Virus record (IMG/VR): IMGVR_UViG_3300045988_126226
Coordinates: 131,035 to 192,808 of that record
Strand: one strand, 5' to 3'
DNA length: 61,774 nt
From: a virus
Shown here: positions 1 through 19,790 of the stretch, piece after piece
Numbering within the stretch: the first letter of the stretch is position 1
Layout: every line of letters begins with the position of its first letter
Notes under the pieces: model-generated
Told to the model about the DNA's origin: nothing
Database searches by the model: none
What the model saw: only the letters and a program-made list of their open reading frames with translations
Position numbers and translations under genes: made by a program

Positions 1-306
1 AAATTATTCTATAATTTTTCTAAGTTTAAATTACTCTATCTTAAAGACTAAGAGAACTTAGTCAAATCCATTTTTCCAGTTTTTATATTTACTGTTTGAG
101 ATAAAATAGTCTATAACTTAGAAGCGGCTATTTGTGCTTCTGTCAATTCTTTTGTTATAGGTAATTTTTGAGTTTGAACTTCATTTACTGAAGACTTCAA
201 TAAATTATCTAACTAAAATTGCAAATCTCTAATTTGATTCTGAGCAGATTTAGAATCAGCAGTAAATTGTAAATTAACCTAATAACTATTTAATTGTTTA
301 GCCATA
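1..306 (-). CDS. late structural protein, N-terminal part (gene continues beyond window start); coiled-coil-like, several in-frame TAG
   Basis: ATG at 306-304 with SD aaggag upstream on minus strand; frame stays open to position 1 only if TAG is read as sense. Confidence 0.4.
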
Positions 307-349
307 GAAATCTCCTTTCTCTCCAAGTTTTATCTTTATATAAAAATAA

Positions 350-392
350 AACGGGGATAAGAGCAATTACACTCTTATCCCCATCACTCTAT
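350..392 (-). terminator. intrinsic terminator after gene 428..961
   Basis: GC hairpin ggggataagag...ctcttatcccc followed by T-run on minus strand. Confidence 0.5.
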
Positions 393-427
393 TATTTTTC
401 AAAAAATAATATTATTAACTAATTTAA

Positions 428-961
428 TTAGCCCAATTTAGTAAGTACATCTTTCAACAAAGCCATATTATCTGGATCATTCAATTTCTTTTGAATATCT
501 GTTGCGTCCAAATCTAAATTACTATAATCCGCGGAAATTGCTTCCATAATACCCATCGCGGAATTGCGATATGACACAATATTATTAGCCATTTCGTGAG
601 TCGTTTTATTTAAATAATAAAATTCTCCATCGGGCACAAGACCAATAATAAGATTAAGCACTTTAGAAGCATTAAGCATATCATAAAGCTTCATTGGATC
701 TTCTTTTTGCTTTTCAGTAAATGAAATATTACTATAAGCATAAACAATCTCTAAGCCAAGATTCATATCTAGCTTTAAAAGATTATAATATCCAGTATTT
801 TCATCTACTGAATTATTCAATACACGAGTAATTAATTCACTCTTTTCCGCAATAGGAAGATATTGCTTTACTTCAATGGTCTAATCATTATATTCAACAG
901 TTTGAACTTTATTAAATTCATCCTTAGTAATTCCTAATTTATTATATGAAATTTTAGCCAT
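428..961 (-). CDS. late structural protein (177 aa, 1 in-frame TAG)
   Basis: ATG 961-959 with SD ggagg; ORF 428..820 extends in frame through TAG; stop TAA. Confidence 0.5.
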
Positions 962-1021
962 AATTAGCCTCCTTTTACTCTTTATTAAATTATACAAAAA
1001 ATTTTTTATTTAGTCAATTTT

Positions 1022-2125
1022 TTAGAGATTCTAAAATTTACTTTGATTAATTCTAATACGTCCATACAAAGCTTTTTCCCAACTTATATCCCCATTAAAA
1101 TAATCATCGTCAATATTATCAATAAGTTCTTTTACTACAGTTATAGTTGGAATAACTTTAATTACTCCATTTAAATTCAATACTAAAAATTTAGTATAAT
1201 TACCACCAATCAATTTATTCAATACAGTATCTACATAATTAGATTTTCCGCCTGTTAATTCATAAATTGCTCTTAATCTATAAAAATATTTAGGAGCGTC
1301 AGGGTGTTCTTTAGGATAGTGTCTCTATTTACAACCTAACATACGATAATATCTTTGTATTTTACTAGAAGCCCCACCAAGAGGAATCATAGTCATAAAA
1401 ACGCGGAAAGGATTTGTTGATCCTAGCTCAATCTAAGTATTGGACATATAATTTTTTGCAGTAAAAGTAGCATTTAATAAAGCATCATAAAGATCCTCGT
1501 CTATTTGATAATGAGAATTCTACTATATAGTATAAGTTTGCTATATTCCTATAATATCAGTTTTACCTGACACTCCTCTCATTGTTGAAATAGAATTCTA
1601 AACGTCTTTTTTAATCTAATCTCCTGCTTTCTTATATATATCACCCATTAAATTCTTAATATCATCATCAATATTTTTAGATAAATCAATAACATTAACT
1701 TGCCCTGTTCCAGCTTTTTTACTTGCACTTGTAATAGTCATGCCTCTATTACCTGCAAAATAATTCTCCGCTGTTGCCACTGCTTCAGCCACTACATTTT
1801 CAAAATATTTGCCACGAGAATCATTATTATCCAAATTTTTAGGAATATTAAACAAAAAATTCATTGAAGAAAATAAATCTGGATTAATCTATTCTAAAGA
1901 ATCTAATAATTCTGCCATTTGAGCGTCTTGAATTACATTTCCTTGTTGCCGGTTTTGAATACTTCTAAAAAATTCTTCCAACTTCTTTGCTTGCTTTTCC
2001 TAAGTTCCTCTCGCATGTAGCTTCTAACTCATACTTCTTTTTGTATAATCATAAGATTTTTTTAAAAAATCCTAAGTGTTCATTTCTCGCGGACTCATTT
2101 TAATACTTCTCTATAATGAATTCAT
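1022..2125 (-). CDS. late structural protein (367 aa, >=8 in-frame TAG)
   Basis: ATG 2125-2123 with SD ggaaaaggagg; fragments 1616..1864 and 1031..1222 lie in one frame joined only by TAG codons; TAA stop at 1022. Confidence 0.5.
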
Positions 2126-2186
2126 AAATCCTCCTTTTCCACATAACGAAAAAATGGGAGAGAATATTTCTATTCTCTCCCATTAA

Positions 2187-2375
2187 TTAATCTTTTTTAT
2201 CTAATTCAGATAAAATCTTACTTACCTCATCTTCCTCTTGAAGAACTACTTCCTCAACAGGTTTAATAGGCTCTTTCTTTACTACAGCCTTTTCTACTTT
2301 TGGCTGCTTTTTAGTAGACTTTTTATCAGGCTGTTTCGGCTGTATATCAATTTTTACAGGACCTTTTACAACCAT
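2187..2375 (-). CDS. small Lys/Glu-rich protein (62 aa)
   Basis: ORF with SD aaggac, TAA stop. Confidence 0.5.
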   Translation of the reverse strand: MVVKGPVKIDIQPKQPDKKSTKKQPKVEKAVVKKEPIKPVEEVVLQEEDEVSKILSELDKKD

Positions 2376-2381
2376 AATTAA

Positions 2382-3449
2382 TTAGTCCTTACTAGCGCTA
2401 TAAGCGTTGGTCTTTCTACGAATATCGTTGTCAACAGTTTCGTCTTCTTCAATGATCTGAATAGCAGCCAAAACCTTCTTACTATGATCGAAACGAGTAT
2501 AATCAGGGAACGCATCCATAGTAAAGGTGAAGGTAGAAGGATCACCAGAAGAAGCCATTGCAAAGTTGAAGTTAGACTGAATCTTACAGTTAGGAATAAT
2601 AAATTCAGCAGGCATATCTACACCATCTTGATTACGGAATAAAGTAGAAGCCTCAAGATAATAGTTACCACCAAATTTATCAGCAGTGATTTCAATCTAC
2701 TTAGCGCCAGAAGCACGAGTAGTATAATAATCAACCATTACAGAGTCAAAATCACTCAAGCAATCAGCAAAATCTTCCGCGACAATATCGTATCCATTTT
2801 TGTCAGATCTTTCAAAAGCAATTACTTGAACGCTCTTTAGTTCATCAGCAGTATCTTTTACAATAGAGCCATCGCTTTCTTTAATTTTCTTAGCAACATT
2901 ATGTGAAAGATAAGCTTCGGAAATAATTTCTCCGTTTTTCATAAAGAAAACATAGACATAATCTTCATCAGCAGAAGTCTTATCAAAATAAGGCTCATAA
3001 TTAAGAGGAATATCGACAGAAGTAATTGCCTTTAAAGCCGTCATTTTTTCATCATTGCTTGTATAAGACTTTTCTAAAGCAGCCTTAAGAGCAGGATCAA
3101 ATTTTAAAACATCTTTCTTATCAATAGTTTGAGTTACATGCTGTTGAATTTTATTATTGGCGGAAGCCTCAGTAAGACCAGCACCGGAAAGAATCATGAA
3201 ACCTTCAGGAGAAATAAGAGCATCTTCCATTGTGAAGGTAACAGTACGCTCGCCTTCCCATGCGACTAAGTTAGTATTACCACGAGCACCTTGTGCGTAT
3301 ACGGTGGTAGCAGCGCCTTCCATACTGGAAGTCTTTAAAGTGTCGAAATAAATAACTGGCTCATTCTTATAAAATTGCTTATTACCAATTACTTGATTAG
3401 TCTTTGCCTTTAAAACGACATCGCAAATTTCGCGTACACCAAATTTCAT
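2382..3449 (-). CDS. major structural protein, possibly tail tube/sheath-class (355 aa, 1 TAG)
   Basis: ORFs 2697..3449 and 2382..2615 are in frame across a single TAG; strong SD; abundant-protein-like composition. Confidence 0.5.
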
Positions 3450-3473
3450 AGGTTTTTTTCCTCCTTAAAAAAT

Positions 3474-4199
3474 TTAATGGATATTTTTCATCCAGTTATC
3501 CGGCTTATTATCAGGCTTCGCGCCAGCTAATCTAGACCGGATATCAATATCCCAATTAATATAAAGTTGATATCTTTCAACAAGGTCATAGAGTTGGAAC
3601 ATTGTTAAATCCATTAAATCCTGTAAAGACATTGAATCAAGACCTACAGTAAGCATTGAAAGATACTAACTAAATATACTAGCGTTAGCCGTGCCGTTTA
3701 ATTCAGCGACACGTTGTCTACCTCGCATTAATTTATCGGCTATTTTTTTCGCGGCCGCATTTCCAGGATTAAATCCCATTTCTTGCGAAGCATTAGACTT
3801 AAAACAAAATATTTCTTTAATATATTCCTATAATATATTAAAATTACTTTCGTCAATCATTATTTGCGGGTCACCTTGTAAAACAATTGACCTAGGGGTA
3901 AATAAAACATTTTGCTTTGGAAACAATAATGTAAGAACCTACATAGATGCTTGTTTTTTATCGGCCATCTCTTTTTCTTTCATCATTGTCATAAATATCT
4001 AAAAATTATTTGTTTCTCTTAAAAGACTTTCGCCCGAATTCTCTATTATGTTTTTATCAATACATAAGCACTAAATCCCCAAGAAAAGATCTTTTTCACC
4101 TATAAAAGAAATCTCTTTTATAGATGGCTAATGAATAGTAACTTCTAATTCAGGTATCGGCAAATCAATACCAGTCATTAAACCAAGTCTAATATCCAT
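3474..4199 (-). CDS. late structural protein (241 aa, 9 in-frame TAG)
   Basis: ATG 4199-4197 overlaps upstream stop (TAATG); frame open to TAA at 3474 only with TAG as sense. Confidence 0.45.
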
Positions 4200-4780
4200 T
4201 ACTTTTCAGTTCTTTTTTTAAAATCTTCTATAAATCTTTCCTCATCATTAGGATTTGGCATAAATTTCTTATCTTCTTCACCATGGACTGCTTGATACAT
4301 AAGACACAAACCAGCATATTCATCAGTTAAAATAATTTGATTAGCACCAAGAAACTCCAACTTGCCAATACCAGTTAAATGTGTTTTATCTATCATACTG
4401 TCAATTTCAGCAGCAATGCGATAAGGGCGTAATTGATAATCTTTTAAATGCCACTAATCATAATGACACACAATATCAAATTCAATAATATTATCTCTAA
4501 ATTCTGGATTTTCACTCTAGACAAAATTATCAAAATTAATAACTATATAATTTAATACACTTCCATCAACATAAAGTTTAGGAATTATTTTAATATTTTT
4601 ATTAAATAATTGAATCATCTGTTCATCATTTAAATCCGGTTTATCAATAGCATCTTTTGTTGTATAGTATAATAAACGTTTAAGTCTTTCATTTTTACAA
4701 AGATGCTTTACAACAATTTCTAAATCTTTTTCAACAGAAAGAAAACTTGATTTAGGTAAATTTACACCATTAATTTTCAT
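4199..4780 (-). CDS. late structural protein (193 aa, 3 TAG)
   Basis: ATG 4780-4778 with SD aaggag; 4517..4780 and 4199..4396 in frame via TAG. Confidence 0.5.
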
Positions 4781-4795
4781 AACACCTTTTACTCC

Positions 4796-5860
4796 TTAAA
4801 ACAATGATTGAACTACAATTGTTTTTTTATAATCTCCATAACATAAGTCAAACTATCCACTATATCCAGAAGTCCAACTTATTTCAACTGTTGGCTTTTT
4901 AGCCTCTTTAATAACTTTTAAAGAAACTGGCAACTTTTTATTATTCTCTATTTTCCATTCTAAAGCAACTTTACCATCAAAATAATAAGTATAAGTTTTC
5001 TTTGGAAAAATAAACGTTTCCCCTATAATATCAGTTGTCATAGGATTTGGATCGACCGGTTCCGCAATTAAAGAACCAACAGTCTTATCATCTAAATTAT
5101 CTTCCTACTCATTAATATAATATTCAGTTGCATTGACTTCCAAAATGCCAGGCATGCCTATGGAATCTACAGCTTCAACGCGCCAACAAATTAAATTATC
5201 TCCTTCATCCTAACTATCTAAATAAAATTTAGTATAACGTCTAAAATAACTTAAAGTATCTTTATTTTTAGGCATTAAAATATTTAATGAATAATTAGGT
5301 CGATCCACGCTAATTTCATGTTTCTAAATATAATCAATTTTCGTTTCTACTGGACCGCGAATCGCTGCGTAAGTAGATTTTTTCTCTCCATCATCCACCC
5401 AATTTATTTTATAAGAGCATTTTCTAATATCCCCTCTAAAATAAGCTAATTCAGTCAAATCCTAAAGATAACAAATCCAATAAGTATTAGTTCCGCACCA
5501 TTCAAAAATATCTCCTGGTTTAAACTAATATTCATTTCCAACAGACAAAATCTTATCATCATAATCCTATTTTAATTTATTAGGATTAATCAAACATCTA
5601 ATAGGTTTTTTATATTCCGCGTCCTACTTAATAATTTCCGCGGCTTGGTATGAATTCCATACTGCTCTATCCAAACTTCTGCGCTTAGATAAAATCATAC
5701 GTTCTTGTTGGCGGTTTCCGCCCATTTGACCGAGCCGAACCGCTGTATAATTAACGCCTTCAACAGGGCTACCTTCAAAGGGTGGTTTATCATAAATCCC
5801 TAAACGACCTTGCTATAATCTAAAAGGTTGCTTACTACTATAATCAAACCCTGACGCCAT
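4796..5860 (-). CDS. late structural protein (354 aa, ~9 TAG)
   Basis: ATG 5860-5858 with SD aggag; continuous frame to TAA 4796 when TAG is read through; includes ORF 4853..5041. Confidence 0.5.
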
Positions 5861-6062
5861 AATTTATCTCCTATAAAAGACTGATAGTTTCAAATACAGT
5901 CTTACGATAAAAATTAAAATCAGTATCTTGATTCTACAATCCCTCAAGTTTGTTTAATAACTATAAATAAAGGGGTTCAGCGTTAAAAATCACACTAAAC
6001 CCCACAATTTCATTTATAACAGTTTCTAGCTATTTATGCCAATCTTCATTATTTTCGCGCAT
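5844..6062 (-). CDS. small late protein (72 aa, 4 TAG), overlaps next gene start
   Basis: ATG 6062-6060, TGA stop at 5844; weak. Confidence 0.25.
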
Positions 6063-6141
6063 TGGAATTAATTTCCATAATTGATTGGTTAAGCGCAAAC
6101 AATTTACTTTTATACTCTCTATTGGAATATCAAAATTATAT

Positions 6142-6720
6142 TTAGTAATCATATCGACTTTTAAATACATCCCAATTAGATTCATACTCACCTTTATTAT
6201 TTAAACGTCTGCGTTTATATAAACGCTACATATGGTGAGATTGTCTTTGGCATTCACCTAATAAATTCAATAGTTTTGATAGATGATTTGCCTAAGAAGT
6301 AAATTTAAAATCAGAGCCACTATATTTCATTCGAGTATTCTCAATTGAAGTGACTTGTCTTTGCGTCCAACCGCACATCATTAAAATAGCTAAAATATTA
6401 ATTTCTTCTTCAGTTAGATCACAATTAAAACTGGATCTATCAACTAAAACTTGAGGTTCTTCACCCGGTTCTGGAAGTTCCCCCCATACTGTTCCTACAA
6501 TAAAATCATCCGGCATAGCGTCAGATTCATTAATAGTAGCGACATCTAAATTATAATTTAAAAGATTTTTTCGCGGAAATTCAAATCCAGGAATAGCATC
6601 TATTATAAGATTCTATAAATCTCTTAAAGTATCTTCGGGGGTTAATTCCAGATACATATCATCAGTAACCTTGTTTAGAAAGCGATTATAAACAGTTGAG
6701 AATAATGTTCCCACTTAATC
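6142..6720 (-). CDS. late structural protein (~192 aa, 3 TAG)
   Basis: GTG 6720-6718 preceded by SD ggaggg; includes ORF 6292..6516; TAA stop. Confidence 0.4.
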
Positions 6721-6733
6721 GCCCTCCTATAAA

Positions 6734-7327
6734 TTATTTCTTGGAGGAAGTTTCCTCGGTTTTATTAATTACTTTATATCCAGAACCGCTTGTGCGACGA
6801 CCTTGAGTAGTAGGCTCTTCTCTTACTACACGGCGCTTAGCCGCAGGTTCTTTCTCTACAATAGTATCTTCTTCTTTACTAGCGATATCATTAGCAATAG
6901 CTTTATCAACATCAAACCCAGTTTTTTCCTTCAAAGCTCTACGCTTATTAATATCAGTAATAGGAAGGCTAACAGATAAATTCTTGATTAAGTCAATAAT
7001 TCCAATAGGAGCAAAATCAAGAGCATCTAAGAAAGCATCTAATGAGCCATTAAGAATTAAATCAGCAACTTGTTGCTCTGACATATTATATTCAGGTTCA
7101 GTATGAACATTAAGAGTATGAGTTACTTCTGGCTCTAAAATTTGTAAAAAATTAGCGATTAATTCACGGCCGCCTGCCTGGTAAGTTAATTTCTCTAGCT
7201 CACCAAATGGAATACGCTTAGTTTCACCGGGCGCAAATTCACGGCGCAAATTAGTATCAGGAATAGTATAAACAACTACACTAGTGCTTCTATTTTTTAC
7301 ATTATAAATATCTTCATTATTAATCAT
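6734..7327 (-). CDS. head-associated protein (197 aa), basic C-terminus
   Basis: complete ORF with SD aaaggag, TAA stop; lies between capsid candidate and tail genes. Confidence 0.55.
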   Translation of the reverse strand: MINNEDIYNVKNRSTSVVVYTIPDTNLRREFAPGETKRIPFGELEKLTYQAGGRELIANFLQILEPEVTHTLNVHTEPEYNMSEQQVADLILNGSLDAFLDALDFAPIGIIDLIKNLSVSLPITDINKRRALKEKTGFDVDKAIANDIASKEEDTIVEKEPAAKRRVVREEPTTQGRRTSGSGYKVINKTEETSSKK

Positions 7328-7359
7328 TATTCAATTTCTCCTTTTACCCATAAAACAAA

Positions 7360-7396
7360 AATATGGGGGGAGGGAGTTTAATCCCTTCTCCCCATG
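7360..7396 (-). terminator. intrinsic terminator downstream of capsid gene
   Basis: G/C-rich hairpin ggggggaggga...tcccttctcccc plus T-run on minus strand. Confidence 0.45.
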
Positions 7397-7413
7397 GAAT
7401 AATTTATATTAAA

Positions 7414-8520
7414 TTAGACAGTACCGTCAAGGCGACCATCATAAGTGATAACCTTACCAGTAACTCCATCATAATTCCAAGTATACATCTGACCGAGAAG
7501 TGAAGTATCAACATAAGCACAGATGTTATTAGTAAGCATACAAACTATGCCAACCTTCTTGTAAACCTGAATCTCACGAGAACGATCATAATTATTGAAC
7601 TCATCAACAATAGTGCCGCCTTCGAAAGCAATCTTTACAGGCTTACCATCAGCGCCCGTAGGAATAACCCAAGCATAACCAGGATCAATAACCTTACGAG
7701 TATTAGTTTCATCTTCAAAACCCTGCTCAAGAATAATAACCTTAATGCCCTTATAAGTAGCAAGACGACCATTATTCCAAAGCTCGTTCTTCATAGCTTC
7801 AGTATATCTCCAAGCCTCATGAGGAATCATCTTAACAGCGAACTCATAAGTACAATAAATAGTAGGAGTACCATAAGCAGAAGCAATAGTGATCAAACGA
7901 TCCATAGCAGCTTCATCAAATCCGGCAGCCGCAACGCGGTTAGCAGGAGGAAGCTGATTGATAGAAGATCTAAGAGCCGCAGCAACTTCTTTATAAATAA
8001 GTTCATCCATACCATCCATGATGATCTTGGTTACTTCACCGAAATCAACACGACCATCAAGGAACTCTTCGAAGCCAATCTGAGCAGCTCCGCCGATAGC
8101 GCTAGTACGTACCTCGAAGGCTTCATTCTCTTTAGGTCCGAGCTTGAAGACTTCGTAAATACCAGCAAGACCAACGCGAGTTACAAACTGCTTAGCACGA
8201 GCGCGGTTATTAAGAGGACGACGGAAAATAGGCTTATCACCCTGAGCGAAAGTCTTAACCTCAGCAAACTGATCGTATTGCTGAATAACTTTCTTAGGAA
8301 GAACCTCATCAAGAGTCTGCTCGATCATGGAGAAAATAAGATTCTTATTTTCACGATAAAGAGCATAAGTACCAGCCAACTCATTCATTTCATTACGAAG
8401 AGTTTCATTTAAGGCTTCATAACTAAGATTTTTTCCCTCATAACTATAAGCAACAGGAGCAGAAGGATCAGCCTTAGCAACTTGCTTCATAAGAGCAATT
8501 AAATTATTTTTATCTAACAT
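7414..8520 (-). CDS. major capsid protein candidate (368 aa, TAG-free)
   Basis: uninterrupted ORF, SD aaaggag, followed by terminator; size and position (after scaffold-like gene) fit an HK97-class MCP; absence of TAG may reflect high expression. Confidence 0.45.
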   Translation of the reverse strand: MLDKNNLIALMKQVAKADPSAPVAYSYEGKNLSYEALNETLRNEMNELAGTYALYRENKNLIFSMIEQTLDEVLPKKVIQQYDQFAEVKTFAQGDKPIFRRPLNNRARAKQFVTRVGLAGIYEVFKLGPKENEAFEVRTSAIGGAAQIGFEEFLDGRVDFGEVTKIIMDGMDELIYKEVAAALRSSINQLPPANRVAAAGFDEAAMDRLITIASAYGTPTIYCTYEFAVKMIPHEAWRYTEAMKNELWNNGRLATYKGIKVIILEQGFEDETNTRKVIDPGYAWVIPTGADGKPVKIAFEGGTIVDEFNNYDRSREIQVYKKVGIVCMLTNNICAYVDTSLLGQMYTWNYDGVTGKVITYDGRLDGTV

Positions 8521-8537
8521 TATCCTTTTCTCCTTTC

Positions 8538-9455
8538 TTACTTAATACGCATTACCTTGACGCCCTTTTGACCATCAGGCATAGTATAAACCTTAACAAC
8601 CTGCCAGGTCATTGAATCGTCGCCAGTTTTGCTAAGAATACCCTTTGTAGCAGCAGAAGGAGAAAGTTTATCTCCAACAGCAAGAGTCTCTTCATTAATC
8701 ATATTAGTAGTATAAAGATCACCAATCATGGTCTTAAATACACGAGGAACCATAGAAGTGCCAGATTCCATGAACTTCTCATGATAGATACCTAACTTAT
8801 GATATGGATCATTGGTCCAATTCATTTCATACATATCAGGAACATCAGTAAGAAGTTTATCATAATAATACTTTACAGGAACATTAGCAACCTGATGATT
8901 ACTATCAAGAGTATATTCATTACCATCATAGGTAAACTTGCCGGTTTCATCAACATCATAAACACGACCAGCAATAGTAACAGTCTTTAAACCCTGATCT
9001 GCGGAAACGGTCTGATTGATTAATTTATAGGTTTGACCCTTTTCATCAACGCCGTTCCAGAAACGACCACCATATTCAACCTCGGTATGCTCCCAATCAT
9101 AAGGACTATAAACACGAGCCTGATAGTCATCTTTAATCATAGCAAATTCGCAATCCCACTGCTTACTGCCATCATAATGATCGCGATAAAGCTTGATCTC
9201 GTTATAAACGAGCATCCATTCACCTTCGCCAGTGAAGTTGACTTCGCCAATACCATTATCATTAGCAGCATAGTCATACTTTACAAACTGACCGTTTTCA
9301 AGAATCTCAATGTCTTTATTAGCAGGAAGTTGAGCATAGATTTGAGCATTTCTTTGTGCGGAAAGGTGATTAGGCTCGACCTGACCGTAACCAAACTCAA
9401 CATACTTTGCCTGAGACTTAATAAAAAGATTCTTATTCAAAAAGTCTTTAAACAT
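8538..9455 (-). CDS. head protein (305 aa, TAG-free); alternative MCP or decoration protein
   Basis: uninterrupted ORF with SD aaggagg between scaffold-like gene and MCP candidate. Confidence 0.45.
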   Translation of the reverse strand: MFKDFLNKNLFIKSQAKYVEFGYGQVEPNHLSAQRNAQIYAQLPANKDIEILENGQFVKYDYAANDNGIGEVNFTGEGEWMLVYNEIKLYRDHYDGSKQWDCEFAMIKDDYQARVYSPYDWEHTEVEYGGRFWNGVDEKGQTYKLINQTVSADQGLKTVTIAGRVYDVDETGKFTYDGNEYTLDSNHQVANVPVKYYYDKLLTDVPDMYEMNWTNDPYHKLGIYHEKFMESGTSMVPRVFKTMIGDLYTTNMINEETLAVGDKLSPSAATKGILSKTGDDSMTWQVVKVYTMPDGQKGVKVMRIK

Positions 9456-9472
9456 TTAGTATGTCCTCCTTA

Positions 9473-11059
9473 TTAATTTTTGTTGGCGGTAGCAAAAGCC
9501 GCCTTCACCCAAGCGGGCATATCATCATCTTCTGAACCATTATCGTTCAAATTAAAAGTAGTAGCACCATTGGGCTTATTATTTTCGTCAAGGTCGAAAC
9601 TCACCTTGTTGCGAACACAAATAACAGATAATTTAGCTTCAATATCATCAAGAGAATATTTATCAATATTTTCAACAACATCAGCCTTATCTTCATCAGA
9701 AAGCATATAGAATTTAGCAATCATATCTTCTTTATCTTTCTTCTCAGCGGCATTTTTAAATTCAACAAGTGGAGCAATTTGCTCTTTCAAGCTATTATTT
9801 TCAGTTTCAAGAGCCGCGAATTTAATCTGTAATTCATCATACTGAGCTTTAAGTTCAGTATATTCAACAACGTCCTCAAGAGAATAATTTTTCTTTTTCT
9901 TTTTATCATCATCATTCTCGCCATTGTCGCCTTTATCAGACTTATTAGAGGGTTCCCCATTATCAGGGTTCTTTTTATTATCATTGCCCTCTGATTTATT
10001 ATCAGGGTTTTGGCCATTAGATTTATTATTTTTGTCCTCTTCCTCAGCCTTTTTCTTTGAAGCATAGTCAGTCTCAAAAGCTTCAACATCAGCAAGAACA
10101 AATTGAGGCTCTGCTGCCGGAGTATAAGACTTAGTTACTTCAGTTAAAGCATCAGAAGGAACAAAGCCTTCTACATCGGTAAGAGAAAAGTCCATGCGAT
10201 AATATTTTTGGTCTTGTCTATTTTGAAGAATAGCAAACTTTTGTCCAGCATCTTCATAAACGCCTTCAATGCGATAAATAGAACAATAACTACTAGGCTC
10301 GCCAGGATATTTAGTCTCAACATAAGACCAGAGAGAATTCCACAAACTATCGCCAATTTCAACAGCATATTGTGTAAACACTTTGGGTCCTCCTTCTTTC
10401 ATAAATTCTTTAAGTTCATTCATCATGGAGAACAAAGTGTTCTTAAAACCATCATCGAATGAAAAATTCACATTGATTTGGGAGCCTTCGAAACAAGGTT
10501 CATTTTCTTCTCCCAAAATACAAAGTTTAGAAATAATTGCCTTATTTATAATAAAAAACTAAGGCTTTCCATTACTATCTTTTGCCCACGTAGCATTTAA
10601 TGTTTTTTCATCAAGCTCCATAGAATGATTATTCCCTTTCTCAACTACACGTTTACACTCAGGATACTAACCAGTCCACAAATAACCTTCAGTCATTAAA
10701 TACTCACGTTCAGCAACACCATCATCCAAAAATTTCTAAAACCAAACTTTAGCTCCAAGATCAACAAAACCATAAGGGCGAGTATTATCTCTCATTCTAA
10801 ATTCGCCATTAGATAACTCAATTATCCTATTATGTTCTTCAAAATCTTCCGCATTCTCATTAAAAAAGCCAACAATAGGACTGCCAGGAAGGCTATTAGC
10901 CATCTCAGTCGCTACATCTTTAGTAATTACGCTTTTGTTACGATTAGGTTTATCATCTACATAACAAACCTTAATTTGACATTTAGAAATTAAAGGATTT
11001 ACAGGAGTTATATTTATAAACTCACAAGGTGTATTTAATTTAATACTTGTATGTTTCAT
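9473..11059 (-). CDS. prohead protease/scaffold-like fusion protein (528 aa, 3 TAG)
   Basis: ORF 10736..11059 (ATG, SD aaggagg) continues in frame through TAGs into ORF 9473..10516; C-terminal coiled coil and K/D/N-rich low-complexity tail; sits immediately upstream of capsid genes. Confidence 0.45.
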
Positions 11060-11068
11060 AAATCCTCC

Positions 11069-12631
11069 TTATTTCATCGCTTCTTTATTTTGAATAGTTT
11101 TTTCACTTTTCTAATCATCAGGTTTTTCCGGACGTCCTGCCTCGCCATTAGAAACTTTAGCAGTTCCAGAACCTGAACTTCCTGAATTATTTTGAGTTTT
11201 ATTATTAGATGATGAACCTTTTAAACCCAAAATATCTTCACTACCCATAGTAGAACTCATAAGAGGAGGAATCATAATTTCACTTAAATGTAAAATCTCA
11301 TTTTCAAAATGAGCTGCATTAAGAATAAAACTCTATGAATGTCCAAGAGCAATCTAAGACAATAGTTTTGATTGTCCCATTTGCGCTTGTTCTTTATACA
11401 TTTTAGAAAGTGTTTGATAATTATTTTGAGTAGTTTCTAATAAATAAAATCTAAAATTATATTTTTTATTACTACTCTTTTTCTCAATAATTCTATTAAA
11501 GAATATATTAAACTATAAAATTAAGCTTCTTATTGTAGATTCATCATTTAATACTGATTTTTCTAAAGCCATATTGCCATCAGTATTAAATAAATTCTAT
11601 GAAATACCTAATGAATTATAAACACTACGTTCAACTTTAGCTAAATCATCTGTCGTTGTAGTAGTATTCTTATCAGACATATCAATAGAATCTACATCAG
11701 TAAATGTAGTTAAAACATCTACTCCAATAGCCCTCTATAACATCTAAACGGCATTATTATGGATATCTCTGGCTTCATCAACATCAAATATCAAATCACC
11801 ATTTTTATCCATTGGGAGCTTTTGGACTAAAATTTTAAGCAACTTCTACATTTGTTTCTTGCGGTCAAGATCTTGCGCTGCATCTAAATCCATAATAGTA
11901 GGAATGGAATTTACAAAAATAGGAACATCACTATTATTAATATTAAATTTAATACAATTTTCTGGCTCAAGAACATACCAACTACCAGTATGCTAGCATC
12001 CAACCGCTTCTTCTAAAGCAAGTTTTCCTTGCTTATATAAAACATAACCTTTAGCAAATTCTTCTGGGAATAATTTTAATACTTTTAAGCGGTAATTCAT
12101 ATCTCTAAAAGTATCAAAAAATCGCATATCAAATTCGACAACTGGGGTATTATTTACACTATAACGTGTTCTACAATATCTAACGGGCAATTCTTGTAAA
12201 ATTAGATTTTTTTCTGAAGGAACTATATATCCATAATAGCATCCATTTTTAACGACTTGTAAAGCAATATCTCCGCAAATCTTTTTAATATAACTATTAT
12301 CAAAATAATTCAGCATTCTATAAAAATCTTTTAAAACTTTTTCTTCTTTTACATTATCATCATAAGTTTCGGCCGCAATATACCAATCATAGCGGTATAA
12401 AAAAGCAACATAATTACAAACTCGTTGATATACACCACTTATATCATAATAAAAATTAGAAATGTATCGTAAAGCATTTAAGTCCCTTTCTGCGAGCGCG
12501 CGAAGCACATCAGGTTTCGTGATAATACGAGTTTGACCTGGGTATCTAATCTTACTATAATCACCAAGTTTTAAAATAGCATCATCTAAAGTTTTTGTGC
12601 CAACTTTTATTTTTCTATTGGCATAATCCAT
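11069..12631 (-). CDS. portal protein candidate (~520 aa, several TAG)
   Basis: ORF 11993..12631 continues through TAGs to TAA at 11069, which abuts the SD of the next gene; Ser/Gly/Asn-rich C-terminus; position after terL; start could be TTG near 12718. Confidence 0.45.
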
Positions 12632-12731
12632 AGTGTCATTATAATTATATTCATAACGACTATTATAAATATCAAAACCTTTAGCGTGAATCTAATCATT
12701 ACGATCTTGCGTATCCAAAGTTCCACCTCCT

Positions 12732-13088
12732 TTAATAACCTGCCAATTTCATTATATAATCATAAGAAATAAGGTTTTCGTCGGTATATGGAATCTCTAT
12801 TAATCTAAAATCATGTAAAGCGCAAAAACGTCTTTTTTGATTATCATTATATTGCTACTGGTATAAACCGCGTTTTCCGCCAAATTTAGAACTGGCTTCA
12901 TAATGCTATTTTCCCTAATACTCAATAATGAAATCAATTTTTCCATCATCATCAAATATAACAAAATCAAAACGAAGCGGACGCCCGCTGGGGCTTTTTA
13001 AATCTGGAAAGATATATTCCATTTTAAAAGGTAGTCCTGCTTCTTCTAAGATTTCTTCAATTTTAATTTCTCCTCTTGAAGCACGCAT
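12732..13088 (-). CDS. stand-alone PD-(D/E)XK (Vsr/DUF559-like) endonuclease, HEG-like (118 aa, 3 TAG)
   Basis: ATG 13088; motif RFDFVIFDDDGKIDFIIEY-Q-GKQHY resembles the C-terminal domain of the 40346 endonuclease; inserted between terL and portal. Confidence 0.45.
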
Positions 13089-13100
13089 TTTCCACCCTCC

Positions 13101-14840
13101 TTAATTTAAAAAGCACCAATCAGCCGCATTAAACTTTTTACGTTTTTTCTTTTTATCTTCTTCAAGTTTTAAATAATATAATCCATATTCAAAAGCCGAA
13201 AATTTATCTTTACGAATTCCGCGATTCGCCTGTTTTAGAATAATATTAATACCTTCATTTTCTTCGCGTAAATTCATCATTTCTTCTTTTAATATGGAGG
13301 TTAAAGTAAATGGTTTTAAATAATCTGCCCTTTGTTCAGAAGTCATTTTTGAACCTTTTTGAGTAGCTAATAATTTTTCTTTAGCTGTTCTCTCATCTAT
13401 TAAGAATTTTATCTTGCCCGCCTGTAATTGAGTCTAAGCATTAGCATGACATTCAGTATTTATTGGAGCATTTGCTTTAATAACATACATAGCATCAAAT
13501 TGAGTATTTGGTGTGCGATATTTTTTATAATATCCATCATCATCATTCTCAACACCAAAATCAGGTAAAAATTCACCATCTTCATCATTTTGAGATTTTA
13601 CCATATAATCTAAAAGTCCAATACCTAAACCGTTACCGTCTATAACCAAAGTTTTAGCTTTATATTTATAAAATAATTTCTTTAATTTAATAGCCTAATC
13701 TTCAAAATGGTCATCTGACATAGTATACATATTTACTAAAGATTTAATAGCTGGACCTTGGGCTTGTGGTGTTACTTTAAATACGCAAACTACCGAATCG
13801 CACCCCTTACGACCTACATCTACAGAAAGCACATAATAAGCTTGCGCGCCCGCGCGTCCAGAAGCTTCATATTCAGGCTATAATAGTTTTCTATTTCTAT
13901 CAAAATGCTCTCCATTAAAGAAAGCATCTTCAACAGTTCCTGACCACTTAGATTCATATTCACGTTCAAATGAGGCCTCGTTATAAGTTCCTTCATTCTT
14001 TTGGTCAGTAATAAATGTCTTACTTTGTAATCCTACCGCAACAGGAGTTCGCCATGTTCCACCTAATACCATACAACGATCGGGCTAAGTCACCATACGA
14101 ACTAAGAAACCAATAAGTCTATCATAAGGGAACGTGCCCTTATAACCAGCAGTAGTAATATAGATTTGTGATTTATTTAATGGCTCTTGTTCATTGGTAG
14201 TGCCATCTTTAGCTCTACGAGAAATTGCCATAACAGGAATAATAACTTCACGAAGAATAGCATCATCAATACCAACACACTCTTCCATTAATCCACCATG
14301 ACGACGCTGACCACGAGTGCTTTCACGAGCTGCGAGGTTATCCAAAACTGAACCATTTTTAAATACATATCTAACTTTATCTTTTCCTTCAAGAGTTTTT
14401 CCTCGGCTCCAATCAATTTCTCGATTAAAGTTTGGAATAAGTTCACATATTTCTTGAACTTTATCATGAAGAATACTAGCACCTTGCTCTTTACCTCCAG
14501 AAGTAACGAACAAATGCGCACCAGGATATAAAATACATCTAATCATTAATGCCATAACAGACAAAAATGATTTAGAATAAGCACGAGGGAAAACCGCGTA
14601 AACATACTAATAACGCATAACAGAACGGAGAAATACTCTCTAATAAAAATAAAAATTAAATTCTCCATCTTTTATTTCAGTGCGTCTTCCTCGCACCATA
14701 AAATCTACAAATAAATCAGGATATTCTCTCCAAAAGGCAACGTATTTGCGGATAGTAGGCATTACCGCTTCTACTCGCTCCGGTGATAACCCTATTTTTC
14801 TACGGCTATCACTTAACTACAGTAAATCTTGTAATGCCAT
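13101..14840 (-). CDS. terL: terminase large subunit (579 aa, 7 in-frame TAG)
   Basis: hand translation joins ORFs 14085..14564, 13878..14072, 13434..13649, 13101..13346 in one frame through TAG; N-terminal ATPase region and C-terminal nuclease-like IDGNGLGIG/ESKWSG motifs; ATG overlaps upstream stop (TAATG). Confidence 0.6.
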
Positions 14841-16027
14841 TATTTATCCAAACCCTATAAGAACTCATTATCTTGCGCAGACTCCTATTCTTTAAATTCC
14901 TCAAAATCCGCGTAATCACTATCTTTAATAGTTTTTTCAAGTTCTTCAATACTTAAATCAGCATCATCAACGATATCGCTTTCCGCGTTCTTTGCTTTCT
15001 CTTCATCTTCTTTAGCATTTTCGCGTAAAGCCTTTTCTACCATTGTGCTAATATTAGTTTCATCTTCAATAAGAGTGCGAGTATAACGTTGCATATCTTG
15101 AATAGTTAAATCCACTTTATCATGTGGCTATTCAACATAATATCTTTCAATATATCCTTCTTTTTCACATAATTCAATTAATTCGCCAATTGAATCAACA
15201 AATTCACCTGATTCTGCTTTGTTTTGAGCAGCAGTAAATTTACCAGACTTCATTAAGCTATCGTATACTTTGCTCATCTTTTGGAAACCTTCAATATCAC
15301 CAATATCGATCAATTGATTTGCCTTTAAAGATGTCTTACATATTAATTTTAGCGTATCTTTATGTCCGGCACCTTGAATATCATAAGAAGCCATCATTTC
15401 TTCATACAACTATTCAAGCTTAACCCATTCTTCAGGCTTATAAGTCTTGCCCCATTTAAGTCTTAAATAAGTGCGGTCTTCATCAGTTAAGTCTAACTCT
15501 TGTTCAACTTTACCACTCTATTGTGCAAAATAATCTTCCGTAGGGGCATTAGGTGGTGGAGCATAAACCGGTTCTTTTAATTCTCCTCCTGGAATAGTGA
15601 TTGAACTTTTTTCAATAGCAGTTGCGATCTACTGAGCGTCATATCCTTGACGTTTCATAGTTTGCTCTAATTTATTATTCGCCATCTATTGTAAAAATTC
15701 AGTATCTTTCCAACGATAATCTTTAAACTATTTGAGTTTCATTTTTGACAAATAACGTCCAAGAATCGTCATACCGGTCATAGACTGCGGATCGCGCCCA
15801 TATTTTTCCATTAATTTATTCCATTCATCTGGAACATAAGGAACATCCGCTTCTTGTAAAATCCATAAATAAGTATCTGGATTCCAATTATCGACGTGCA
15901 TTGTCATACATTTTTTGCACACGGGAAATTTACCATCATTAGGATATTTTTCTAAATTATTAGATGAATAAAATTCCGTGCCATTCATTGTACGATTACA
16001 TTTTTCGCAATAATATGTTTCAGCCAT
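14840..16027 (-). CDS. Zn-ribbon protein upstream of terL (395 aa, 7 TAG); possible small terminase/DNA-packaging protein
   Basis: ORFs 15728..16027, 15128..15409, 14885..15115 share one frame via TAG; N-terminal CxxC...CxxC; acidic C-terminus; coupled to terL. Confidence 0.4.
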
Positions 16028-16076
16028 AAATAAAATATTCTCCTTTCAACTATTTATTATAAACAAAAGGACAATA

Positions 16077-17132
16077 TTAAGATTTTTTGGCCTTAGAATT
16101 TCGACAACTTTTACAAATACTATAAAAGCCATCTTTGCTTGTTTTATTTTTACTAAAATATTTATTATGAGCTAATTTTATTTTACCACAACGACTACAT
16201 TTTTTATATTTACCTTTTTCAACATTTAAATAATAATTATCTAAATATTCATCTTCCGCAGTCGAAGCAATTAATTTTGGAATTTTATTACGCCATAAAC
16301 TTGAAATATATTCAAGGCTGTGCTTAATACCAAATTCCATTTGTATTTTCTCTTGAATGTCAATATTTTGTAAACCATCAATTTTATATTCAACGATTCT
16401 ATCATAAAGAGGATAATTAGCTAAAGCTTTATCACAAAGCTTATCAAAATCCTCCATTAAGTACCACAAGTCTTTATCATATTCGCCCCAACTATCTTGT
16501 TTTAATCGGGAATAATTACATAAAACCGCAGAACATATTTCAGGTCTTAATAAACTAATTCCATCAGGAATGGGAAAACCATCATCATCAAAAATAAATG
16601 TTTTATCATCTAATGGAATATAAGACTTTGATCTGGTTAATTTTGTAGGCACTATTGGACGACGATAAGCATTTTTCATAACATACTAATCTTTGCGCAT
16701 TTCAATAAGAGCCTTTTTAATAACAAAAGCATCTTTGCCTTCTGTTACTTTTAATTTAGCCTCCCAAACATTAATGGCTTCTCTTAACTAATTTAAACTT
16801 GGTATCTCTTCTAAATCTTTTTTTGTAATTGTAATATGTGGTTGAAATATTGTATTTCTATTATTTGTAATTAAATTATAAATTCCATCTTCGCCATTTT
16901 CGAGTTGGGAAACAAGACCTTCAAAAGAAGTCTCACGCTTATTAACTGTAGCCATACGATTATCAGTTAATAATTTTTTCTCCTTTTTTTCTTGTTTCTC
17001 CATACAAAGAACCAAATAGTCTGCTAAAATTTCTAAATACTTTTCAGGCGGATCTGGATTATCAGCCAAAATTTGTTCGACTAATTGATTTCTTTCTTCT
17101 GGAGTTTGTAAAGAATAATCAAGTTTTATCAT
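16077..17132 (-). CDS. first gene of late operon (351 aa, 2 TAG), C-terminal CxxC Zn ribbon
   Basis: ORFs 16788..17132 and 16077..16679 in frame across TAG; ATG 17132 directly after divergent promoter region. Confidence 0.45.
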
Positions 17133-17324
17133 TTTTTACCTCCAGTCTATATTTATATTATACTCGAAAAAATTTTTTTTGTCAAGTTTCATTTAAAATT
17201 TTTTCTTTTTATATTTAAAAATTTTTTTAATAAAACAAATAACTTTTGCCCAATCACGCTCCACGATTTGACATTTCTTTATTTTTATTTTATTATTATT
17301 ATAAGAAAAAGAAAAGGAGTATTT
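17133..17324. promoter_or_regulatory. divergent AT-rich promoter region between late (minus) and early (plus) modules
   Basis: TTGACA-like boxes on both strands, A/T tracts, followed by SD aaaaggag and ATG 17325. Confidence 0.4.
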
Positions 17325-17432
17325 ATGGAAATTATTTTTATTATATTATTGAGTTGTGCGTTAGTAGCATCGTTCCTTTTTTTATGGTTATATAGAAAAG
17401 CTTTTTGGGTATTATACCAAAAAATGGCAAAT
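17325..17432 (+). CDS. small hydrophobic peptide (35 aa) ending in TAG; in frame with next ORF
   Basis: SD aaaaggag 8 nt upstream; only early ORF terminated by TAG. Confidence 0.4.
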
Positions 17433-17462
17433 TAGCAAAAAGAATTAAATAAATGGCCAATC

Positions 17463-17717
17463 GTGCAATATGAGTGTATGTTATTATTAAATATATTTTA
17501 TAATTATGATTTTGAGGGAAGAGCAGTAGATTTTTCGCGATATGAGACACAAGGATTAATTGTTTATAATTGTTTTCATGATGCGAAAAATAGTCCAAAA
17601 GGAATCGCGAATGATGGAATTGTTTCATCATTTTATAAACAGGCATTTGTATATGAATTAGATGATGGAACATTTGAATGGGAGGATATTGAAGATGAGG
17701 CGGAACCAGCCTTTTGA
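17463..17717 (+). CDS. hypothetical early protein (84 aa, GTG start) or C-terminal part of a TAG-readthrough fusion
   Basis: ORF track; same frame as 17325..17432. Confidence 0.35.
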   Translation: MQYECMLLLNIFYNYDFEGRAVDFSRYETQGLIVYNCFHDAKNSPKGIANDGIVSSFYKQAFVYELDDGTFEWEDIEDEAEPAF

Positions 17718-18090
17718 AGTAAGAGGAATAGATGCGGTAATATTTAGATTAGAACAAGAATATTTTAACGCAACAAGAGATAAAGATCCTTTTGTAAGAG
17801 ATTGGAAATTATTTAAAACAATACGTGTTGAGCAGAAGGATAATGGGTCAAGAACAATTACTTATAAACCTTTATCAAACGCGGAAAAGGCTCAATTAAG
17901 CACCAAAGAAGAACAAGAAGAATACCAGTTAAATAAATACAAATATGTATTAGAACACTTAATGGAAAAATATGATATAAATACTATTAATAGATATATT
18001 GATAGTTGTAAATATAAAGATAAATTAATCAAATATATGGAGGAAAAATTAAATGCGGAAACCACTCAGCCCCTTGAAGGCAGTTGCTAA
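17695..18090 (+). CDS. hypothetical early protein (131 aa)
   Basis: ATG 17695 with SD ggagg; TAA stop. Confidence 0.5.
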   Translation: MRRNQPFEVRGIDAVIFRLEQEYFNATRDKDPFVRDWKLFKTIRVEQKDNGSRTITYKPLSNAEKAQLSTKEEQEEYQLNKYKYVLEHLMEKYDINTINRYIDSCKYKDKLIKYMEEKLNAETTQPLEGSC

Positions 18091-18517
18091 AAAGTATCAG
18101 CAGAAAGCTACTTATTCTGCTACTTCTGGACTATACACTCTTATGTGGGGTGAGAAGCCTAAAAGAGGTAGAAAAAAGAAATCGTAATTTAAGATTATTG
18201 TTTTAACCCGTAATTTGAAATTGAAAATTGATTTAGATTGTGTTTTGACCAGGCAAAAGAAAAAACAATAAATAAAAATTTATTTTTCCCGAAATACACC
18301 CCGCCCCATGCAGGTTTTATTCATTCTTGAGTGAATAAAAATGCAAAGGTATGATGCAAGGGTGCCGCGCCCGTCAAACTGCACAAAAGCCCGCCCCGTA
18401 CAAAACAAATCTTTGTGCAATCCGTTAATTGTATTCCGTGGCTGAATCTGCTACCATGTAGCCATGCTGAACGGCGGAACATCGAATGGCAAATTACATG
18501 AAACGAGGATTTACAAA

Positions 18518-18820
18518 ATGACGAACGCCAAAATTAAAGAAATTTGTGAACTGTCTGAACAGATTAAAAAGTTGAGCGCACGGTTAGAAGAACTCAAGGC
18601 CGAATTCCGCGCCGATAGTGAGTTGACCGGCACGACGGTTTACACCGCCGAAAACAAGTACACCGTGCAGATTCGCGCCGGTGGCATGAACGCGGGCGGC
18701 CTTGATACGAAAGCCTTTAAGACTAAAGCGCCCGCTTTGTACGCGGAATGTCTGCGCAAGTATCCCAAAGCCGCGACTGCCCGCGCCGCCCAGGTGCTTC
18801 CCACTACCGCGAATAAGTGA
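18518..18820 (+). CDS. hypothetical protein (100 aa) in GC-richer island
   Basis: ATG 18518, TGA stop; composition differs from flanks. Confidence 0.45.
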   Translation: MTNAKIKEICELSEQIKKLSARLEELKAEFRADSELTGTTVYTAENKYTVQIRAGGMNAGGLDTKAFKTKAPALYAECLRKYPKAATARAAQVLPTTANK

Positions 18821-18859
18821 GGGCCTTGCGCCCTCCCCCCTTGCGGGGCAATCATCTAT

Positions 18860-18879
18860 ACACACACACACACACACAC
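18860..18879. repeat. (AC)10 dinucleotide microsatellite
   Basis: acacacacacacacacacac read directly. Confidence 0.9.
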
Positions 18880-18908
18880 GTTAGCGCGTTAGCGCAGAAA
18901 GGCACATT

Positions 18909-19070
18909 ATGTCTACTATCAAGACTCTTCTCGACGGTGTTCTTCTTGTCAAGCCCTTGTCTTATGTCCTCGGTGAGGACTGGACTTACCTCTATTCCGA
19001 CGTCTACAAGGGCGTGGAATATGACGTCCATGCTTGCATGAACGGCGAGGTTGTCGCGGTGTTATGCTGA
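18909..19070 (+). CDS. hypothetical small protein (53 aa)
   Basis: ATG 18909 after gaaagg, TGA stop, followed by hairpin gaggggattatcccctc. Confidence 0.45.
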   Translation: MSTIKTLLDGVLLVKPLSYVLGEDWTYLYSDVYKGVEYDVHACMNGEVVAVLC

Positions 19071-19134
19071 GGGGATTATCCCCTCAGCCCCTCTAAAAAC
19101 TATATGCGCGCTTTAGCGCGGGAAAGGTCATATT

Positions 19135-19611: not shown

Positions 19612-19642
19612 CCCACTCGCTCCATAGAAAGAGGTGTATATT

Positions 19643-19774: not shown

Positions 19775-19790
19775 AAGAGAGGAAAGAATT

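Follow-up and report, generated by a model that had tools for sequence, protein, structure and literature searches.

Reassignment of the amber codon TAG to glutamine, with a bias towards late genes and with suppressor tRNAs encoded by the phage, is known from crAss-like phages, Lak phages and several other gut clades, and has been proposed to regulate the translation of late or lytic genes (bioRxiv 10.1101/2021.08.26.457843). The altered code (code 15) has been shown at the protein level in crAss-like phages by metaproteomics (PMC9523058), and populations have been reported to gain and lose in-frame TAG through synonymous changes (bioRxiv 10.1101/2023.08.07.552389). In phAss-1 (proposed Phassvirus) and the broader EF1-like group (PMC10607447), siphovirus-type phages of the human gut, TAG is read as glutamine in the genes for the large terminase subunit (TerL), portal, tape measure and fibres, tRNA(CUA) lies within large tRNA sets with no dedicated aminoacyl-tRNA synthetase, and recoded and standard-code members occur in one clade. 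The recoded gut phages of Borges et al. likewise concentrate TAG in structural and lysis genes preceded by a standard-code module, encode their own suppressor tRNA and have close relatives with different codes. In the phages surveyed for theta ribozymes, such a ribozyme lay behind 85% of the suppressor tRNA genes, and code 15 was the predicted code of 96% of the genomes that pair the two (PMC10879173). Here we describe a lineage that resembles these phages, starting from a 61,774-nt stretch of a tailed human-gut phage genome (positions 131,035 to 192,808 of IMG/VR record IMGVR_UViG_3300045988_126226; hereafter the window), in which TAG interrupts most of the virion genes and is a sense codon.

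Under the standard code, most minus-strand structural genes of the window fall into fragments. With TAA and TGA as the sole stops, the minus strand from 17132 down to 428 resolves into 17 back-to-back open reading frames (ORFs) separated by 1-nt overlaps or short spacers, and ORFs of 100 aa or more, which cover 43% of 428–17132 under translation table 11, come to cover 97%. In frame, these 17 genes have TAG 72 times but TAA and TGA never; as TAG makes up only 15% of their out-of-frame stop triplets, chance or random decay is excluded. PHROG profiles run across the TAGs (portal residues 73–546; TerL residues 43–438 against phrog_2). In six sister strains (95–97% identical), variant nucleotides are distributed 1270 : 256 : 155 over codon positions 3 : 1 : 2, and this third-position excess shows that the late frames are translated as single units. 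A first-pass annotation, made from the window sequence alone, had proposed that the late fragments share one frame and that reading TAG as sense restores full-length proteins, among them a TerL of 579 aa and a portal of about 520 aa. This is borne out, with the portal measuring 549 aa from a TTG start or 520 aa from an ATG. Two of its particulars needed correction: three minus-strand structural genes (6734–7327, 7414–8520 and 8538–9455) have no TAG at all, and the nine TAGs credited to a 241-codon gene belong to the 354-codon gene 4796–5860, the 241-codon gene (3474–4199) having six.

The same picture emerges from the terminators. External code-aware calls on near-identical public contigs (99.97–100% identical over the overlaps) were combined with the late-gene ORFs into a list of 100 genes, of which 72 end in TAA, 28 in TGA and none in TAG, with no TAA or TGA in frame. 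With TAG making up 0.155 of the out-of-frame stop triplets, a complete lack of TAG terminators has a probability of ~5e−8 among all 100 genes and of ~3e−5 when the calculation is restricted to the 71 "early/middle" genes of the plus strand. TAG is a sense codon in this phage, and TAA and TGA still terminate, the latter as claimed in the first pass. In-frame TAG is present in 26 of the 100 genes. It is under purifying selection in most virion genes, in two lysis-type genes downstream of the window and in the homing-endonuclease genes. The only sizeable ORF ending in TAG (30713–31231) was considered as a gene and dismissed, having a translation that does not look protein-like and lying in a stretch that the external callers leave uncalled; the whole of 30650–31520 is without a called gene.

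To identify the residue inserted, window proteins carrying X at each TAG were aligned to related loci by tblastn. Glutamine was by far the commonest residue opposite TAG: it occupied 21 of 47 aligned positions in MT836163, an unannotated human-faecal contig with no in-frame stops in the aligned segments, 11 of 43 in Enterococcus phage VRE9_4, which has been cultured and uses the standard code, and 10 of 24 in phAss-1. In a TAG-free relative from a metagenome-assembled genome (MAG) bin (L030, about 63% identity), glutamine faced 33 window TAGs and the next residue, glutamate, five. With a background glutamine frequency of 3.5–5% in these alignments, the enrichment exceeds six-fold in every comparison, and glutamine gives the highest BLOSUM62 sum at TAG positions in all four. 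Among nine sister-strain loci, window TAGs face only TAG (358), CAA (22) or CAG (14). The late block has 83 TAG sites, 62 of them fixed; the other 21 are polymorphic and without exception alternate with CAA and/or CAG, several showing all three codons. Since a change between TAG and CAA needs two substitutions, neutral passage through CAG is implied. On this comparative evidence, UAG is read as glutamine in most virion, lysis-type and selfish-endonuclease genes.

The suppressor itself lies outside the window, in which neither ARAGORN nor Rfam (at gathering and permissive thresholds) finds a tRNA with a CUA anticodon. The first-pass annotation had noted this and placed the suppressor elsewhere in the genome, rightly so. 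A public locus (L008, from scaffold_27 of ERZ28660502) matches 50273–61705 over 11.4 kb with no mismatch and one gap, and continues past the window into an array of about 19 tRNAs, where a tRNA(CUA) is found at 20063–20152 of that locus, ~8.7 kb beyond the window end (ARAGORN; Rfam tRNA, 56.2 bits). The tRNA and tRNA-like elements at 58771–61368 in the window open this array. In this strain the tRNA is 90 nt long, with a long variable arm that has a 4-bp stem and with no encoded CCA; the allele recurs in six IMG/VR genomes of 159–197 kb, while in sister strains L007, L009 and L010 the site is occupied by a tRNA(CUA) of 73 nt. Altogether, three tRNA(CUA) sequences (two of 73 nt, one of 90 nt) share one slot with identical flanks and the same ribozyme after it (L007–L010, L020–L025), so that the suppressor looks like a cassette swapped between strains. 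A "tRNA-SeC(tca)" called by ARAGORN in L021 looks like a false positive and was set aside.

All three alleles have U35, G73, G2:C71, G10 and an unpaired 1:72, which are features used by the glutaminyl-tRNA synthetase (GlnRS) of E. coli; they are consistent with glutamine charging without amounting to proof of it. The classical E. coli amber suppressors offer a comparison, supE being a tRNA-Gln with a CUA anticodon and su7 a tRNA-Trp with a CUA anticodon that inserts glutamine. The phage tRNA resembles them in its CUA anticodon with U35 retained, in G73 and in a weak or open 1:72 pair. It differs in being encoded by a phage, in serving more than 100 sense codons in the window alone instead of rescuing a mutation, and in the long variable arm of one of its alleles. 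Within the array, the CUA and CCA tRNAs of the phage are mutual nearest relatives, a parallel to su7 with a small margin. Derivation of the suppressor from tRNA-Trp was considered but is not claimed, since their identity of 0.75–0.77 stands too little above the 0.71–0.74 seen for unrelated tRNAs.

Directly after the tRNA(CUA), 1 nt beyond its last base, begins a hepatitis delta virus (HDV)-like ribozyme (L008 20153–20207) that matches RF02682 (HDV-F-prausnitzii) with 27.7 bits (E = 0.004 in a 521-base search). By eye it has P1 GGUGCUA/UAGCACU, P2 AAACAAA/UUUGUUU, P3 ACC/GGU, an L3 of UCCUCGU (the CCUCCUCG motif), a GCUAA junction and a C at J4/2. Together with its position these elements agree with the double pseudoknot, and with a cleavage site no more than 5 nt from a tRNA 3' end, that are expected of tRNA-associated theta ribozymes. 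The arrangement appears to be that of theta ribozymes (Kienbeck et al. 2024, PMC10879173), in which the ribozyme likewise starts at the base after the tRNA 3' end with no encoded CCA, in code-15 gut phages, and in which one ribozyme sequence is paired with different tRNAs. Unlike the described cases, the present one is a match in sequence and structure only, scoring below the RF02682 threshold, and it belongs to a clade binned mostly with Bacillota, whereas the hosts described for theta ribozymes are mostly Bacteroidota.

TAG is unevenly spread over the window. The minus-strand block 428–17132 has 72 TAG, 125 CAA and 33 CAG codons (mean GC 0.33). On the plus strand, 17.3–34.0 kb has 1, 27 and 53 (mean GC 0.44), 36.2–54.2 kb has 10, 60 and 58 (0.38), with nine of the ten TAGs in the inserted gene pair 40198–40356 / 40346–41269, and 54.2–60.7 kb has 22, 29 and 5 (0.33). 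The contrast between the late block and the first two plus-strand blocks is significant (Fisher P = 5e−13). Beyond the window, a lysin-like gene in L008 has two TAGs and a small gene upstream of it three. Within genes, TAG positions are uniform, with no significant 5' bias, and a test of the +4 nucleotide context was not significant. The preference of TAG for virion and mobile genes, though pronounced, has exceptions, and the most abundant virion proteins are exempt. Among 12 recoded relatives, TAG accounts for 0.02 of the glutamine-type codons in the capsid gene, 0.00 in 8538–9455, 0.02 in the tail tube gene and 0.09 in 6734–7327, against 0.17–0.60 in most other late genes; by this measure the capsid, 8538–9455 and the tail tube avoid TAG clade-wide. 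The first-pass annotation had confined plus-strand TAG to late-type or selfish genes. This holds for 55425–58691, 40346–41269, 54259–54995, 59008–59775 and 40198–40356, but at least one gene of its TAG-free early and middle set, 50915–51715, has a genuine in-frame TAG, and 17325–17717 has one as well.

We regard it as very probable that the window comes from a code 15 phage, with UAG meaning glutamine and UAA and UGA as sole terminators. Late translation may be gated by the suppressor, as proposed for other gut phages. In such a phage, the host ribosome and host release factor 1 (RF1) would at first complete only TAG-free proteins, namely those encoded by the small genes that follow host-type promoters on the plus strand. 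After transcription of the tRNA array, the ribozyme would cut the 3' end of the suppressor tRNA, CCA would be completed, and a host enzyme would charge the tRNA with glutamine. Read-through of UAG could then yield full-length TerL, portal, tail, lysis and endonuclease proteins, and would also permit the TAG-bearing products of the host-promoter genes 16077–17132 and 50915–51715. Suppression would compete with RF1, and the bulk proteins (capsid, 8538–9455 and tail tube) would be kept TAG-free. The low TAG use of these three genes suggests that suppression carries a cost where a protein is needed in large amounts, and the host-type promoters before 16077–17132 (two TAGs) and 50915–51715 (one TAG) suggest that translation may be gated as well, not transcription alone. 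The timing switch is a published hypothesis with which the layout is compatible: TAG is enriched in structural and lysis genes, the exceptions being 17325–17717, 50915–51715 and the TAG-free capsid and tail tube. The avoidance of TAG in the capsid, 8538–9455 and the tail tube (where the window has a single TAG) and the TAG genes behind consensus host-type promoters also set this phage apart from those of Borges et al.

Several points weigh against this reading. The TAG-rich genes are also the AT-rich genes, so mutation pressure accounts for part of the distribution. Two TAG-bearing genes (16077–17132 and 50915–51715) follow consensus host-type promoters, and TAG therefore does not simply track transcription class. 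The label "early" for the TAG-free 17.3–54.2 kb block derives from strand, promoters and gene size only, almost none of its genes having an assigned function. The ribozyme matches fall below the RF02682 gathering score of 44. Finally, we know of no bacterial tRNA-Gln with a long variable arm such as that of this strain's suppressor, and this arm makes the glutamine charging identity of its tRNA(CUA) uncertain.

The first of these points leads to the chief alternative, namely recoding without any regulatory role, in which TAG placement would be a by-product of AT-biased CAG-to-TAG mutation wherever selection allows it, and highly expressed genes and recently imported genes of higher GC would have yet to accumulate TAG. 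The TAG share of genes falls with GC (rho = −0.75) and rises as the CAG share falls (rho = −0.77), TAG largely replacing CAG in TAG-bearing genes; the block 17.3–34 kb, almost without TAG, has a GC of 0.44 and is strain-specific; the most abundant virion proteins are late and yet TAG-free; and TAG shows no 5' concentration. What such a drift would leave unexplained is the lack of TAG among 100 terminators, which extends to the 71-gene set that includes the higher-GC block and thus points to selection linked to the code throughout the genome. TAG is moreover carried by homing endonucleases and by the lysis-type genes of L008, as in other recoded phages. We consider this alternative possible, with a chance well short of even, and it is compatible with the switch model, the two not being mutually exclusive.

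Suppression might instead be supplied by the host, either a UAG-sense bacterium or a natural suppressor strain, in which case the phage tRNA(CUA) would be dispensable and no switch of code would take place. Relatives were binned with diverse Bacillota and 'Mollicutes' MAGs, which leaves some room for this idea. We think it very unlikely: all strains with retrieved sequence extending to the tRNA(CUA) site have kept the gene there, even though its allele has been replaced, and a TAG-free block would be unexpected if the host read UAG. We also know of no bacterium that uses code 15.

Decoding of TAG as another residue, for example serine, is brought up by the suppressor allele found in L008 and the six IMG/VR genomes, whose class-II shape (90 nt, 4-bp variable stem, G73) resembles substrates of seryl-tRNA synthetase (SerRS), and by plus-strand genes in which the window has TCG or TCA where sister strains have TAG (five strain-by-site comparisons). 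It is nevertheless most unlikely. Wherever a window TAG differs in a sister strain, the counterpart is CAA or CAG (36 of 36 comparisons, including TAGs shared with one strain only), the two-step path between TAG and CAA ran through the synonymous CAG, and serine is rare opposite TAG in homologues. The 90-nt allele, moreover, keeps the same GlnRS-type positions as the short ones, and the tRNA array is only partly visible, so further suppressors may exist. That the class-II arm of tRNA(CUA) and tRNA(CCA) alters charging (e.g. by SerRS), orthogonality or resistance to host factors, such that strains of one phage species differ in the manner, or even the outcome, of UAG decoding, is quite unlikely; if true, the swapping of tRNA cassettes would make the genetic code a strain-level variable. 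There is, lastly, virtually no chance that the fragments are pseudogenes of a decaying phage or assembly or sequencing artefacts, which has nothing but their broken look under the standard code in its favour, given that the frames are interrupted by TAG and never by TAA or TGA, that they vary so strongly at third positions, that the same TAGs recur in many independent assemblies and samples (for the head protein, the index of public contigs lists 1692 blocks) and that 12 of 13 distant relatives share the pattern.

Table 1. Features of the 61,774-nt window; positions are those of the window.
Feature	Position	Strand	In-frame TAG	Remarks
Tape-measure gene, 5' end	1–305	−	6	In about 100 codons; gene continues beyond window start
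Tail/virion gene	428–997	−	1	
Tail/virion gene	1022–2125	−	13	
Tail tube, YomU-like	2382–3449	−	1	Pfam name via sister-strain calls
YomV-like gene	3474–4199	−	6	241 codons; Pfam name via sister-strain calls
YomW-like gene	4199–4780	−	2	Pfam name via sister-strain calls
Tail/virion gene	4796–5860	−	9	354 codons
Tail/virion gene	5844–6191	−	4	
Tail/virion gene	6142–6714	−	3	
Head gene	6734–7327	−	0	CAG preferred
Major capsid, YonB-like	7414–8520	−	0	CAG preferred
Head gene	8538–9455	−	0	CAG preferred
YonD-like gene	9473–11059	−	3	
Portal	11069–12718	−	10	549 aa from TTG backed by a Shine–Dalgarno (SD) site, 520 aa from next ATG
Homing-endonuclease-like gene	12732–13088	−	3	DUF2726-like nuclease type
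TerL	13101–14840	−	7	579 aa
YonG-like gene	14840–16027	−	8	
Gene behind consensus promoter	16077–17132	−	2	
Sigma-70-type promoter TTGACA-17-TATAAT	17185→17157	−		Into 16077–17132; 12/12 consensus matches (pattern match only)
Sigma-70-type promoter TTGACA-17-TATTAT	17268–17296	+		Into 17325; 11/12 consensus matches (pattern match only)
First plus-strand gene	17325–17717	+	1	Perfect SD; TAG at codon 37 (17433)
About 35 small genes	17695–33714	+	0	GC about 0.44; Gln codons mostly CAG; ends TAA or TGA
Low-GC islet gene	34670–34945	−	1	
HTH gene, low-GC islet	35141–35752	−	5	HTH the only domain detected
About 35 genes, mostly without assigned function	36248–54177	+		TAG-free except 40198–40356, 40346–41269 and 50915–51715
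Small gene of inserted pair	40198–40356	+	1	
Endonuclease-like gene of inserted pair	40346–41269	+	8	307 aa; C-terminal half DUF2726-like nuclease
Gene with own promoter	50915–51715	+	1	TAG at 51017; own terminator, TTGACA-17-TATAAT promoter, AGGAG site, TTG start
Split endonuclease ORFs	54259–54582 / 54561–54995	+	4 + 5	54561–54995 DUF2726-like nuclease
Late-type gene	55425–55976	+	2	
Gly-rich ALK_LTK_GRD protein	55993–57408	+	4	
Gly-rich ALK_LTK_GRD protein	57369–58691	+	3	
tRNA-like element	58771–58841	+		6-nt anticodon loop AUUUAA; Rfam tRNA 42.7 bits; ARAGORN undecided between Lys and ochre stop
tRNA(CCA) Trp	58864–58948	+		85 nt; long variable arm, G73, encoded CCA
GIY-YIG endonuclease	59008–59775	+	4	
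tRNA-Leu(UAG)	60984–61068	+		
tRNA-like element, Ala-UGC by ARAGORN	61156–61231	+		Below Rfam tRNA threshold
HDV-like/theta-type ribozyme	61232–61290	+		RF02682 28.5 bits, below gathering; 1 nt after tRNA-like element 61156–61231
Odd tRNA-like element	61294–61368	+		8-bp acceptor stem

The window (GC 36%, with a sharp strand switch near 17.2 kb) covers about one third of its genome. Both ends of scaffold_27 (193,058 bp) join inside it near 34.9 kb, so that the genome is ~193 kb long and assembles as a circle; public metagenome contigs with window proteins measure 188–199 kb. At the window end, 61705–61774 holds two copies of a 29-nt direct repeat (GATTAGAAAGAAGTTGGAAGATCTTCTTA), and exactly there the matching public scaffold gives way to a run of N. 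The window end is an assembly break and does not mark a biological end.

The minus-strand proteins match PHROG families of the terminase large subunit, portal and virion proteins, and Pfam searches of gene calls on near-identical public contigs return YonG_N, YonD_N, YonB, YomW, YomV_2nd, YomU_Tube and PhageMin_Tail, the last as a protein of 2741–2832 aa called at the tape-measure position in sister strains. Together these make up an SPbeta-type structural module in conserved order (YonG, TerL, portal, YonD, YonB as capsid, YomW, YomV, YomU), syntenic with that of Enterococcus phage VRE9_4 and Geobacillus E3. By tblastn, TerL is 60% identical to that of MT836163, the closest GenBank relative, 47% to those of Enterococcus phages VRE9_4 and H1, 45% to that of Geobacillus virus E3 and 44% to that of phAss-1, which the NCBI files under "Caudoviricetes code 15 clade". 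No GenBank phage matched the late region at the nucleotide level by megablast, and relatives were recognisable from protein comparisons only. phAss-1, whose own TAGs face Q or E, is thus a distant relative, and it differs in genome size (136 kb against ~193 kb) and in having three suppressors against the one seen here; it was deposited under code 11 with fragmented ORFs.

Thirteen further relatives were found in MAG bins (L028–L040) from human, roe deer, sheep and other samples. In-frame TAG is present in the late genes of 12 of them and in none of those of L030, and this mixture of TAG-bearing and TAG-free relatives appears to mirror the mixed-code clades of the literature. The bins are labelled Mollicutes, Clostridia, Lachnospiraceae, Erysipelotrichaceae, Bacilli and Muribaculaceae. 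Host assignment through these labels, which are inconsistent and unreliable, was not used.

At the strand switch, the two back-to-back promoters (17157–17296) face the first gene of each strand, and both genes bear TAG. A "sigma factor" PHROG label of 16077–17132, uncorroborated by Pfam or by a sequence search of the PDB, was not built on. If TAG stopped translation, the first plus-strand gene would encode a membrane peptide of 36 aa; read-through would extend it to 130 aa, the length given by external calls. The TAG at 51017 is kept in three sister strains, with synonymous differences only on both sides of it. Adjacent to that gene, 51767–52873 (plus strand) is a 368-aa peptidase-like ORF (phrog_34186, phrog_4191) that the external calls omit and that overlaps the start of 52744–54177 by 130 nt in another frame.

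The segment 17300–34000 is a strain-specific accessory block, with gene GC of 0.40–0.54 against about 0.33 in late genes; only three public contigs carry 25535–25987, against the 1692 index blocks in which the head protein appears, and 28902–29276 and 31522–31899 are paralogues of about 79% nucleotide identity. In the low-GC islet that follows, the first-pass annotation had placed a Rep-like gene at 35096–35752 on the plus strand; the gene is actually 35141–35752 on the minus strand and has a helix-turn-helix (HTH) domain only. Upstream of it, at ~35760–35950, are four iteron-like direct repeats (GTTAAAATTTTAGACAYCTAT), with further copies near 35000–35060; one assembly is 78 bp longer here, and public contigs end in this area. 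The iterons and the HTH gene may be an origin of replication and the initiator that acts on it, in which case the earlier label would make sense.

The ORFs 54259–54582 and 54561–54995 jointly resemble the protein of 40346–41269, and the gene has apparently been split by a frameshift. Segment 54200–54976 is absent from sister strains L005, L006 and L010, and the region past the 58.9 kb tRNA differs between strains; both observations support mobility of the endonuclease genes. At the site of the 85-nt tRNA(CCA), sister strains have an ordinary tRNA-Trp of 73–75 nt, and the position of the GIY-YIG gene directly after it suggests that the allele was replaced by homing. Every one of the six sister loci that extend over the neighbouring tRNA-like element 58771–58841 has it in that position.

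Recoding of this kind is already known for gut phages, and in the present lineage it is clear-cut; none of the results overturns the current understanding. Members of the clade are frequent in assemblies from the human gut and turn up in roe deer and sheep MAGs as well; their genes need to be called with table 15, since more than half of the late region breaks up under table 11. The practical gain for annotation is small, because public gene calls of the lineage already read through TAG. The phage does offer a clean example of TAG, CAA and CAG acting as synonymous alleles within a population. Its least ordinary points are the clade-wide avoidance of TAG in major virion proteins, the occurrence of TAG in genes that follow host-type promoters, and the class-II shape of the suppressor and of tRNA(CCA) in this strain. 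Abundant virion proteins kept free of TAG across the clade point to a cost of suppression and qualify the equation of late genes with recoded genes, and the TAG-bearing genes behind host-type promoters are candidates for asking whether the change of code gates translation independently of transcription.

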